A stretch of DNA of 64,000 nt from a virus (taxonomy: Duplodnaviria > Caudoviricetes): positions 256,001 through 320,000 of the IMG/VR virus record IMGVR_UViG_3300037501_000111; one strand, written 5' to 3'. Below, piece after piece: positions 3,720 to 19,446 of the stretch. The notes under the pieces are model-generated. The model was not told the origin of the DNA and did not search any database. It saw nothing but the letters and a program-made list of their open reading frames with translations. Within the stretch, counting starts at the first letter, position 1. The number at the start of each line of letters is the position of its first letter. The translations under genes and the position numbers were made by a program.

Positions 3720-4810
3720 ATACTATACACATACAGGTATTGCAATCCTGTCAGGTAAGTCTAAAATCTTTAGAAAAGATGACTTCCTTACCTCAAATGC
3801 GTTTAAGATTAGCTGAGATAGATGAGAAATCTAGTGATCCGTCTTTTTGGAATAATCCAAGATCCGCTGCTATCTTAATGAAAGAACGTAAAAAATTGGA
3901 TGACTTCATTACATTTTTCACACGATCAAAAGACGATTTAGAAATATATAATGAATTCGTCAAGGCTGGAGAGCTAAGTGATGCAGATTTTGCACAGCTT
4001 TTCACTCTAAATTCTAAACTACAGTCTACCGTGTTTGAGCAGATGATGAAAGATCCGGTAGATGATACTCCAGCTATCATTTCTATTAATGCTGGTGCGG
4101 GTGGACTGGAGGCAGCTAATTGGGTTACTATGTTACTTCGTATGTATACTCGATATGCAGATAGCCAAGGCTTCAAGGTCGAGATCCTAGATGAAAAGCC
4201 TTCTGAAGAGCATAGTGCTATTTGTACTGATTCTGTTTCTATTAGAGTAGATGGCCCATATGCATTTGGTTTCTTTAAATCAGAATCTGGAGTTCATCGT
4301 CTCATCCGCAACTCACCATTCAATGCCGCTGATGCTAGACAAACTTCATTTGCTGGTGTTCAGGTCACACCTGATATTGAAGATACTATTGATATTAAAA
4401 TAGAGGAAAAAGATATAGAGATTACTACTATGCGTAATTCTGGTCCAGGTGGACAAAATGTTAACAAAGTAGAATCTGCTGTCCGTCTCAAACATCTTCC
4501 AACTGGTATAGTTATTAATTCTCGTTCAGAGCGTAGTCAATTAGATAATCGTAGATTTGCCATGAAGATGTTGAAAGCAAAACTTTACGAATTAGAAATG
4601 AAAAAGAAGCAAGCCGAACAAGATAAACGTGTGGATGCTACGGCTGATGTATCCTTCGGTAATCAAATCAGAACTTATACTTTAATGCCCTATAAATTAG
4701 TTAAGGATGAACGTACCGGATTTCAAGTTAGAGACGCCGATGCCGTTCTTGATGGTGACATTCAAGGATTTATGATTGCTTATCTTCAGGAATATGATAA
4801 AATCGCATAA
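3716..4810 (+). CDS. prfB: Peptide chain release factor 2
   Basis: SPF stop-recognition tripeptide (RLIRNSPF), GGQ catalytic loop (SGPGGQNV), [22 protein letters not shown]; continuous reading frame. Confidence 0.95.
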
Positions 4811-13894: not shown

Positions 13895-13983
13895 AAAATC
13901 AATGAATATGCCAAGGGCGCAGCGCACTTACCCTGTTGGCTCCCATTCACGGGCTGCACTTACCCAGGATTGGAGGTTGAACG

Positions 13984-16120: not shown

Positions 16121-16357
16121 CGCCCTTCGGCCAGCTAGTCGCCCCGTGCAATCCCGAGTCTTCTGTCAGGCTCAAAAGGGACACGGGGCGACTAGCCTAG
16201 TTTCTGTTTCTCCAGCGTCACCAAAAGCGCACGGGGCTACGTGCGGCCTTCCAAGGTTTGAGTGACATAAGGGTTCGACTCCCTATGAATCTGTAGCATC
16301 CCGGCCCGTAGCCTTCCATTCACGGAGGCACGGGCTTGAGGTGTTGGAGGTACAACG

Positions 16358-18066: not shown

Positions 18067-18278
18067 ACGATACGAACGCAAAAACCGGGCCAAGCGGCCT
18101 CCCATTCACGGCGCATCGCCAGCGAAGGTCGCCGCACCGCAAACGACGCAACGCAAGGTGCAGACATACAGACACGGACCATGTGAGTGGGTATGAGCAA
18201 GAGGGACGGGCTCCCATTCACGGCAAACCGGGCGCCGAAAGCGCCGCAACCCACACACTGACAAGAGGGAAGAAAACA

Positions 18279-18476
18279 ATGGGCAAGATTCTGGTCATCA
18301 TTCTGGCAACGTGTGCGTGTCTCTGGCTGGCCTTCATGCTGGTCGGAACGCGACTGACTAACACGGCCTTCAACGTGCCTGGTACCGAACACACACCCGC
18401 CTTCGGTGTCACCTGGACCATCATCCTGGGCGCGGGGGTGGGGTACGTCATCTATCGCATCGTCAAGGGCAAGTAA
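18279..18476 (+). CDS. Small two-TM membrane protein
   Basis: GAGGGA RBS; two hydrophobic segments. Confidence 0.7.
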   Translation: MGKILVIILATCACLWLAFMLVGTRLTNTAFNVPGTEHTPAFGVTWTIILGAGVGYVIYRIVKGK

Positions 18477-18490
18477 GAACTAACAAGTTT

Positions 18491-18950
18491 GGGAGCCGAA
18501 AGGTGGACCGTCCACTCTACCAGCTAACGAGAGGCGCAATGCTGATGGGCCATGAGGTATTGGCTTACTGCTGGCGGCTCCCATTCATTGCTACAAATTC
18601 CCAAGGTGGGGCGGTTGAGGAAAGCTGACTCCCCGCCCCAAACAATCCTATAAATTATACTGGGAAGTTCTCGTCAGCATACCTGTCAAAAGCCGAAGGT
18701 GTACTGCTAGCCAGGTGACATGACTCACCTGCGATCTTTTCGACCAAAGGGTAGGAACAATACAGGCTAGGTAGCTACTTCGGTAGTCCAACTGTATGCC
18801 CCAAGGTATAGGCTGATCTCTACCGATTGAGCGGGGTAGGAGACAGGGCAGGTATGCTGACGAGAGCTGGCTAGTCCAGCATAGCTGGAATCCTTTCAGG
18901 CTAGTCCAGCATAGCTGGAATCCTTTCAGGCTAGTCCAGCTGTACCACCA
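18491..18950 (+). ncRNA. Candidate large structured non-coding RNA
   Basis: No credible ORF; 22-bp long-range stem (18666-18687 with 18847-18868) enclosing several hairpins; further 8-bp closing stems at 18491/18582 and 18607/18640. Confidence 0.55.
18869..18940 (+). repeat. Tandem repeat, 30-nt unit, about 2.4 copies
   Basis: CTAGTCCAGCATAGCTGGAATCCTTTCAGG at 18871 and 18901, partial copy at 18931. Confidence 0.9.
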
Positions 18951-19446
18951 TCCTAGAGATACCTGCGAGGCCTCTATGGAATCCAGACCGAATTACTTAC
19001 AATTCCGAACTGGATCTCGACAACACGTAGGGGGATCTAATAGGGGGTATAGCAGATATACTCCGGAAGTTGGGGGATGTGGTAAGCCTGGGCTGGGATG
19101 ACGGCTATCACACGGTCACGGTCTCTCAGGTTCACAAGGACGGGACGGTGGATGTCTTCCGTCCCTACACGGCCACGGCTGACTTTTCATGTGCAGGGCG
19201 AGAGGAGGGATCTTCCTCAGTCATCTGCTACGTGGGAATCGAAGAGGTCAAGGGAACACCGGGTCATGAAGTGTAAGCAGAGGCTCCCATTCACGGCAAC
19301 CCGAACGCAACGAACGACCAACATAGAACTCGGATTCTGGTTTGGTTTCATTACACTTCGTACAAGTAATCATGCGCAAGATGCAATAGTATGCCCATCT
19401 TGCGCAGAGAAAAACTCCCATTCACGGCATACGGGAAGCGAAAACC

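Follow-up and report, generated by a model that had tools for sequence, protein, structure and literature searches.

A previously undescribed structured RNA of ~200 nt, with a core of ~150 nt, is very probably carried by a few uncultured giant phages, where it forms a real and conserved family. It was found in the window, i.e., the whole 64,000-nt stretch of phage DNA that was analyzed (positions 256,001 to 320,000 of IMG/VR record IMGVR_UViG_3300037501_000111). Six members were collected, comprising three long forms (~205 to 230 nt; the window and contigs L005 and L082) and three short forms (~150 to 170 nt; L074, L075, and L076). A preliminary description of the window had presented 460 nt (18491 to 18950) as one large multi-domain RNA, and all of the stems that it named were located there. 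The flagged segment is a composite, not one multi-domain RNA, and consists, in order, of a hairpin found only in the window, a copy of a dispersed motif, a 5' hairpin module, the conserved element, and a tandem repeat (Table 1). Thus, the description of a new phage noncoding RNA (ncRNA) holds for the part called Domain 3, which is conserved, covarying, noncoding, on the + strand, and without an Rfam match. It does not hold for the 460-nt unit, since Domain 1 is phage specific, Domain 2 is a lineage-specific add-on, and the 3' tail is a tandem repeat. The 460 nt were predicted to fold better than shuffled sequences, at -188.3 kcal/mol (z = -4.9 on the + strand versus z = -3.7 on the - strand); Domain 3 folded alone gave z = -5.5. 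The segment, described earlier as lacking an open reading frame (ORF), was without a conserved one: a stop in L005, the closest relative, interrupts its longest frame, which lies on the - strand, and no reading frame is open in both the window and L005.

Table 1. Features of the composite segment and of the conserved RNA, in window coordinates
Feature	Position	Strand	Description and support
Domain 1 (window-only hairpin)	18477-18575	+	Spacer rich in hairpins that follows the stop codon of the gene for a 65-aa membrane protein (18279-18476); outside the conserved RNA
Domain 1 stem GGGAGCCG/CGGCTCCC	18491-18498/18574-18581	+	
Motif copy GGCTCCCATTCATTGC, "CATTCAT" variant	18576-18591	+	Putative start signal of the RNA unit
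5' hairpin module	18598-18666	+	Helix UUCCCA/UGGGAA (18598-18603/18661-18666) around the Domain 2 hairpin (18607-18640)
Domain 2 stem TGGGGCGG/CCGCCCCA	18607-18614/18633-18640	+	
Conserved structured RNA (Domain 3), long form	18666-18868	+	R1 homologs, alignment A4, covariation
Terminal (long) helix of Domain 3, 5' arm	18666-18687	+	21-22 bp; 11/21 consensus pairs change on both sides; 97.6% of cells paired
Terminal (long) helix of Domain 3, 3' arm	18847-18868	+	Same covariation support as the 5' arm
Inner 4-bp helix P2	AGCC 18691-18694 with GGCU 18811-18814	+	Closes the multi-branch core; 2/4 pairs change on both sides, 100% paired
Small hairpin GGYR-UAC-UGCY	18698-18708	+	One-sided changes only, all compatible with pairing
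Hairpin CAGGUGA-CAUGAC-UCACCUG (CAGGTGA/TCACCTG)	18712-18731	+	Invariant loop region GACAUGACUC; compensatory changes A-U to G-C and U-A to G-C
Long-form extension	18741-18808	+	ATACAG/CTGTAT stem with UUCG-capped hairpin; window, L005, and L082 only
ATACAG/CTGTAT	18760-18765/18792-18797	+	Surrounds CTAC-TTCG-GTAG (18775-18786)
Hairpin P3, TCTCTACC/GGTAGGAGA	18817-18843	+	Near-invariant CCGAUUGRGCGGGGUAGG; 2/8 pairs change on both sides, one position with four pair types
Perfect 30-bp tandem repeat (x2.4)	18869-18940	+	CCAGC-AUA-GCUGG hairpin per unit; window specific, absent in L005
ACCACCA	18944-18950	+	

No match to 18300 to 19200 was obtained in the INPHARED phage collection (blastn, word size 11), and an exact-word scan of IMG/VR gave one true relative, L005 (a 209,766-bp contig), which was recognizable as such from the 21 copies of the dispersed motif in 9 kb of its sequence. 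All other loci in IMG/VR with exact 16- to 20-mers of the long form were chance matches. L005:2071-2362 is 88% identical to window positions 18576 to 18867, and the neighboring genes are 71 to 95% identical. L005 lacks Domain 1, the tandem repeat, and everything up to position 19000, and its next motif copy directly abuts the long helix. The L005 unit therefore consists of motif, 5' hairpin module, long-stem domain, and next motif, with no ORF. A covariance model built from the window and L005 (R1) found no second copy in the window and none in the genome records of two relatives (G001 and G002). R1 matched three contigs that had been reached via the downstream protein family (40 relatives in public assemblies), namely, L075:283-453 (E = 2.5e-22), L074:3430-3576 (E = 3e-18), and L076:3619-3788 (E = 2.8e-11); these divergent copies are shorter and hold Domain 3 only. 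The remaining long form, L082, was found in a metagenome collection by a family signature pattern. A first metagenome scan with a 20-mer gave no matches and also missed sequences known in JGI samples, the collections being incomplete. Pairwise identity among the six members ranges from 65% to 88%. A second model from all six (R2) gave E = 1e-31 on the window and E values of 1e-23 to 1e-33 for every member searched, with no extra copy in the window, the G001 or G002 record, or nine other related contigs; no carrier, whether the window, the 210-kb G002 record, or any other contig, has more than one copy of the RNA. Among contigs reached via the upstream membrane-protein family, one carried a copy identical to that of the window, and the RNA was absent from L019, L020, and L021. 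It was also absent from L080, L081, and L083 to L085, which were reached via the downstream 65- to 86-aa family.

The preliminary description had recognized no RNA class in this segment, and a covariance-model search of Rfam 15 (4,227 models) bore this out: positions 18200 to 19300 had no match at E ≤ 10, and the element had none at E ≤ 5 in the four loci with the short forms and L082. At gathering scores, the only Rfam matches in the whole window were 3 tRNAs, located elsewhere. Searches of the literature on ncRNAs of huge phages returned nothing relevant. With no relative detected in Rfam 15 or in the literature searched, the element appears, from these sequence comparisons, to be a new RNA family, with a present scope of six sequences from one phage clade.

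The fold is supported by alignment A4, in which the six members share a consensus of 50 pairs and 97% of the cells in these pairs are standard pairs. Changes on both sides were seen in 18 of the 50 pairs, compared with 8.5 ± 1.8 in column shuffles, none of 500 of which reached 18. When partners were slid by 1 to 3 columns as a control, 0 to 2 pairs showed changes on both sides. The consensus pairs include 33 G-U cells versus 2 A-C cells, and this excess indicated that the fold belongs to the + strand, as had been proposed earlier from the G-U pairs of the long stem. Moreover, with the substitutions found in L005 the predicted energy was -115.4 kcal/mol, versus -98.0 ± 6.1 kcal/mol when they were placed randomly (P ~0.01). 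The collection of homologs, a check proposed with the preliminary description, thus brought out compensatory changes, in Domain 3 only. Among 148 shared columns, 81 are invariant, i.e., 33 of 48 unpaired and 48 of 100 paired columns; unpaired positions more conserved than paired ones are usual for an RNA with tertiary or partner contacts. Insertions are confined to two peripheral hairpins.

This pattern also bears on whether the element acts as DNA, for instance, as a miniature inverted-repeat transposable element (MITE), a recombination site, or a replication origin. Such an element would account for a 19- to 27-bp inverted repeat around ~160 bp and for the two different gene neighborhoods among the relatives. 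Yet the arms covary rather than keep a protein-binding sequence, and the G-U and A-C counts fit a single + strand fold; in addition, neither the window nor the G002 record nor any further carrier contig has a second copy, and an origin would not be missing from a complete relative. A MITE, in particular, was rejected, as it needs multiple dispersed copies with sequence-conserved terminal inverted repeats. We consider a DNA-level function scarcely credible.

The RNA is predicted to be a compact multi-branch core closed by an end-to-end terminal helix of 21 to 22 bp. The length of this helix is kept at ~21 to 22 bp while its sequence changes (22 contiguous pairs in the window), and its central CAG/CUG and outer UC/GA pairs are invariant. 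At the CAGGUGA/UCACCUG site, a further hairpin is inserted in L076 and L082. The long-form extension (65 nt) stands in for a simple CCCC/GGGG hairpin of the short forms, and its inner hairpin covaries (CUAC/GUAG, CAGC/GUUG, and CAC/GUG). A GCUAGCC/GGCUAGG pairing in the extension was rejected by the six-sequence alignment and by L082, which favor the UUCG hairpin; the energies of two extension models, GCCGAAG/CUUCGGU and the UUCG hairpin, lie within 2 to 3 kcal/mol. A candidate pseudoknot joins CUGCY, by the UAC loop, with RGCGG in the P3 loop. At its Y/R position, half of the six members have U-A and the other half C-G, with a difference within both pairs of close relatives; this degree of covariation was equaled in 27 of 500 shuffles and is suggestive only. 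The internal junction pairings and the pseudoknot are uncertain because there are only six sequences, three of which are 82 to 88% identical to one another.

A compact, probably pseudoknotted core with invariant junction nucleotides and variable peripheral stems would also be expected of a catalytic RNA, such as a new class of self-cleaving ribozyme that would process early transcripts at the unit boundary. The element is intergenic in a phage, a location that it shares with many small self-cleaving ribozymes. Nevertheless, no ribozyme family of Rfam 15 was matched even at E ≤ 5 to 10, ~150 nt is large for such a role, and nothing in the element points to a cleavage site; a ribozyme is therefore regarded as improbable.

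Intrinsic terminators consist of a G+C-rich hairpin followed directly by a U-tract, and this identity was rejected because no U-run lies past the terminal helix in any of the six members. A terminator scan gave one match, at the frequency expected by chance (1 found, 0.7 expected). It fell on an internal hairpin, CAGGUGA/UCACCUG followed by GCGAUCUUUUC (window positions 18712 to 18741), whose U-run is kept in four members; L005 and L082 form a 3-bp mini-hairpin instead.

Four kinds of known RNA invite comparison. RNase III stalks include the helices flanking 16S and 23S rRNAs in rRNA operons and the sites between phage T7 early genes. Like these, the terminal helix is a long helix formed from the two flanks of an RNA or located at a unit boundary, spans about two helical turns, and lies in phage early transcripts; unlike them, it is without a T7-type internal loop and encloses a conserved core of 110 to 165 nt, and its cleavage is a prediction. 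GOLLD and ROOL are large structured RNAs associated with phages or prophages, and both are in Rfam. The element resembles them in being phage borne and elaborate, with variable expansions and loops more conserved than stems, and there are tRNA genes elsewhere in the window and a tRNA-like module ahead of the L082 member. In contrast to GOLLD and ROOL, it has no covariance-model match, is several-fold smaller (150 to 230 nt), is closed by one long terminal helix, and has so far been seen in one giant-phage clade. The pRNA of phi29, also in Rfam, is an early promoter-proximal phage RNA of 120 to 170 nt, and it shares with the element its size, an early promoter-proximal placement, a terminal helix formed from both ends, and a branched central domain. 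The element differs in that it does not match an Rfam model and no mutually complementary pair of loops was identified in it. Since it is absent from the complete relative G001, it is not an essential motor part as phi29 pRNA is. Finally, bacterial Y RNAs of the YrlA type, which are probably in Rfam, have a long stem of their 5' and 3' ends that closes a structured module. The end-to-end stem is similar, and a tRNA-like T-arm element adjoins the RNA in L082; however, there is no model match, and the tRNA-like piece, seen in L082, is external to the stem and is not a conserved feature of the family.

The dispersed motif CTCCCATTCAYKGC occurs in 24 copies in the window at one mismatch, versus 0.14 expected. 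All copies are on the + strand, as is every gene. Most copies are intergenic, 20 to 70 nt ahead of start codons, and often just past a stop codon or hairpin. The position and strand of the copies suggest that CTCCCATTCA may be a promoter. A rarer variant, CATTCAT, precedes the RNA in all three members that have their own copy (the window, L005, and L082). In the form CTCCCATTCAC(G/C)G, the motif spans window positions 13940 to 52995 and is also present in L005, L011, L074, L075, and L082. In the giant-phage clade, its density is ~20 copies per 8 to 9 kb of early region, always on the coding strand (21 copies in 9 kb of L005 and 23 copies in 8 kb of G001). It is not used by the more distant relatives L080, L081, and L083 to L087 (L086 and L087 checked by nhmmer only). 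A literature search with the motif string returned nothing relevant. A sigma-70-family ORF, in an open frame of 214 codons, is present in both the G001 and the G002 record, and its product could read the motif. A search for a T7-type RNA polymerase found none in the relatives and was uninformative, because the control genomes were equally silent.

The 5' module of L082 (L082:1745-1890, - strand) contains a perfect T-arm, AGGG-TTCGACT-CCCT, and an acceptor-like GACATG/CATGTC stem, and the T-arm sequence recurs in the window at 16270 to 16284. The 3' strand of this T-arm and the next bases (CTCCCTTCCATGTC) match the motif CTCCCATTCACGGC at 10 of 14 positions; given this likeness, the motif may be related to tRNA 3' halves.

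The surroundings of the element vary among members. The 5' module of the window is shared only with L005; L082 has a different 150-nt piece with the tRNA-like T-arm, and in L075 there is a short hairpin instead. A dedicated motif copy lies ahead of the element in the window, L005, and L082. The short forms have none, and there the element starts 3 to 20 nt past a stop codon. At the other end, the element stops 0 to 13 nt before the next motif copy or variant in five of the six members; the exception is the window, with the tandem repeat in place of the following motif copy. The element is the last part of an early transcription unit. The L005 and L082 units contain nothing but the RNA and its 5' module between two motif copies, with no ORF.

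A small two-helix membrane-protein gene precedes the element in the window, L005, L075, and L082, and a gene for a 45-aa Arg-rich protein precedes it in L074 and L076. Copies of the 45-aa protein, with an Arg-rich C-terminal half (KVMRDRRNRRPKDARRKRE), are located at L074:3289-3426, L076:3467-3604, L011:2202-2345, and L005:668-736, and the protein looks like an arginine-rich RNA-binding peptide. As a partner of the RNA it was rejected, because it is also present in L011, of genome G001, which lacks the RNA. Indeed, no neighbor protein strictly co-occurs with the RNA, since both the 45-aa Arg-rich and the 65- to 86-aa families are found in L011. Pfam gave nothing above threshold for the small neighbor proteins. 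The gene at 19079 to 19276 in the window encodes 65 aa and matches its 83- to 86-aa relatives over the first 59 residues only, so it may be altered at its C terminus. No motif copy belongs to this gene (the one that follows is at 19284), and its transcription would start from the motif of the RNA, with the RNA as a 490-nt leader.

The outer parts of the flagged segment are separate from the RNA. Domain 1 is missing in L005, where the motif begins 6 nt past the gene stop, and the closing 3' arm of its stem overlaps the dispersed motif copy, counted at 18578 to 18591 in the one-mismatch search. Domain 1 lies upstream of the promoter-like motif and is specific to this phage; the 10- to 11-mers that it shares with pieces of the RNA were estimated to be at chance level. 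Domain 2 had been likened to a C/D-box K-loop, a suggestion that failed on comparison: the hairpin is confined to two of the six members, which differ in its loop (UGAGGA...CUGA in the window and UGAGGG...CUGA in L005). A box C/D motif combines a C box, RUGAUGA, with a D box, CUGA, in tandem sheared G-A pairs beside a 3-nt bulge. Neither loop has the sequence RUGAUGA, and 2 nt (CU) lie between the GA of CUGA and the closing stem, so that a box C/D K-turn or K-loop was rejected.

At the 3' end, the sequence ACCACCA had been described as the end of the segment. It is present, as described, but the 30-bp tandem repeat around it had been overlooked: ACCACCA sits in a degenerate third copy of the repeat, is not conserved, and is absent in L005. 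A tRNA-like or CCA-ended RNA was accordingly rejected, ARAGORN finding no tRNA or tmRNA here. The repeat unit contains CAGCATAGCTG, which nearly matches the 5' arm of the long helix and is therefore complementary to the 3' arm at 10 of 11 positions. Mimicry of tandem-repeat RNA antitoxins or of CRISPR repeats is one idea for this repeat. An exact 18-mer of the unit had 5 single, chance-level matches among 185,579 species genomes, none of them in an array (exact matches only). For a CRISPR-repeat mimic, no supporting array was found by this exact search in those genomes.

For the RNA itself, we tentatively favor a discrete early ncRNA that would be processed at its stalk and whose core would act in trans, a mechanism that as a whole we hold to be plausible rather than probable. 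Its transcription, cleavage at the stalk, and action in trans are, we infer, as follows. The element would be transcribed early, either from its own motif copy (window, L005, and L082) or together with the small gene ahead of it, as the end of that transcript (L074, L075, and L076). The terminal helix would serve as a processing and stability stalk that unites the ends of the RNA, and the same core would be released, most plausibly via host RNase III, or shielded from exonucleases, irrespective of the upstream sequence. The conserved nucleotides that are unpaired in the core would then bind a partner in trans, which might be a host or phage protein or RNA, and this action would serve host takeover or counterdefense. 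Such a stalk would explain how the same core can work behind three unrelated 5' contexts (motif and hairpin module, motif and tRNA-like module, and directly past a stop codon) and why the length of the helix is kept despite sequence drift. The helix has the length of an RNase III substrate (~20 bp or more, nearly uninterrupted). A search of the G001 and G002 records gave no RNase III domain, and the enzyme would therefore be that of the host. The earlier suggestion that the long stem may be an RNase III site is thus compatible with the stalk model.

What counts against this mechanism is that no neighbor protein strictly co-occurs with the RNA and, as regards position, that in three members the element directly follows a gene without a motif of its own, like a cis-acting 3' element, and that plain hairpins occupy the same pre-motif position in some other units of the window. 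Both positional observations would suit a cis-acting 3'-end element of the upstream unit, i.e., a large terminator, insulator, or RNase III site. It would stop or cut transcripts ahead of the promoter that follows, and the upstream mRNA would keep a protective hairpin at its 3' end. RNase III sites between the early genes of phage T7 act in such a way, and the helix is long enough for RNase III. Also in keeping with this alternative, the element is close to the stop codon in the three short forms (3 to 20 nt) and, in five of the six members, close to the motif copy or variant that follows it (0 to 13 nt). A plain hairpin would suffice for such a function, yet ~60 nt of loops and junctions are invariant, and these are more conserved than the stems. 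Furthermore, a motif copy separates the upstream gene from the element in three members, and the units of L005 and L082 are ORF-less; their own start signal argues against a pure 3' untranslated region or terminator, which needs none. With no U-tract past the helix in any member and most units without such an element, we judge a cis-acting 3'-end element unlikely, though it is to be taken seriously.

The proximity to the motif could instead indicate a nascent-RNA regulator acting in cis on RNA polymerase, similar to the put antitermination RNAs known from phage HK022, which would allow read-through of the hairpins between early cassettes. The RNA does lie shortly past the promoter-like motif in three members, in a region with several cassettes separated by hairpins. 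However, a fresh motif copy follows almost at once downstream, so that read-through seems unnecessary; the element is absent from the complete relative, G001, which has the same cassette layout; and it has no similarity to the two-hairpin RNAs of the put type. A put-like function is accordingly considered very improbable.

The trans-acting ncRNA that we favor would be a dispensable one. The RNA is absent from the CheckV-complete 480-kb relative G001, in which the same motif is used (as determined by BLAST, R1, R2, and mismatch-tolerant signature patterns), and L019 is without it at the same site. The RNA is therefore accessory, a cassette of patchy distribution. In L011 (positions 3767 to 3875; genome G001), a different noncoding element, with a 16-bp long-range stem including G-U pairs (z = -2.2), follows the membrane-protein gene, which suggests that interchangeable "stalked" RNA cassettes fill the slot after this gene. 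A second ORF-less unit of ~250 nt, with a long closing stem (z = -2.9), lies between two motif copies right after the RNA in L005 (positions 2377 to 2628). The first ~57 nt of this unit, which contain GATC and G-run direct repeats, are 91% conserved at window positions 19001 to 19057, upstream of the gene at 19079. A bolder reading, which we find rather doubtful, is that the core belongs to a new functional class of RNA with an activity of its own, deployed in the first minutes of infection. It might be a new ribozyme or might act on a host factor (for instance, RNA polymerase, a ribonuclease, or a defense sensor) as a high-affinity decoy or hijacker. On this reading, it would be one of several interchangeable stalked cassettes in the early regions, with the other long-stem noncoding units of L011 and L005 filling the same or adjacent slots.

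The element adds a well-supported RNA gene to the mostly unannotated early regions of giant phages, which are known almost only from metagenomes. The alignments (A4 and A5), the consensus structure, and covariance model R2 can be used to find more members. The natural long and short versions mark the dispensable parts, and a size of ~150 nt suits probing, cleavage assays, and structure determination. The early regions of these phages are built from cassettes, some of which are RNA rather than protein. If the stalk model is true, the terminal helix would give phages a general means of inserting RNA genes into any transcript.
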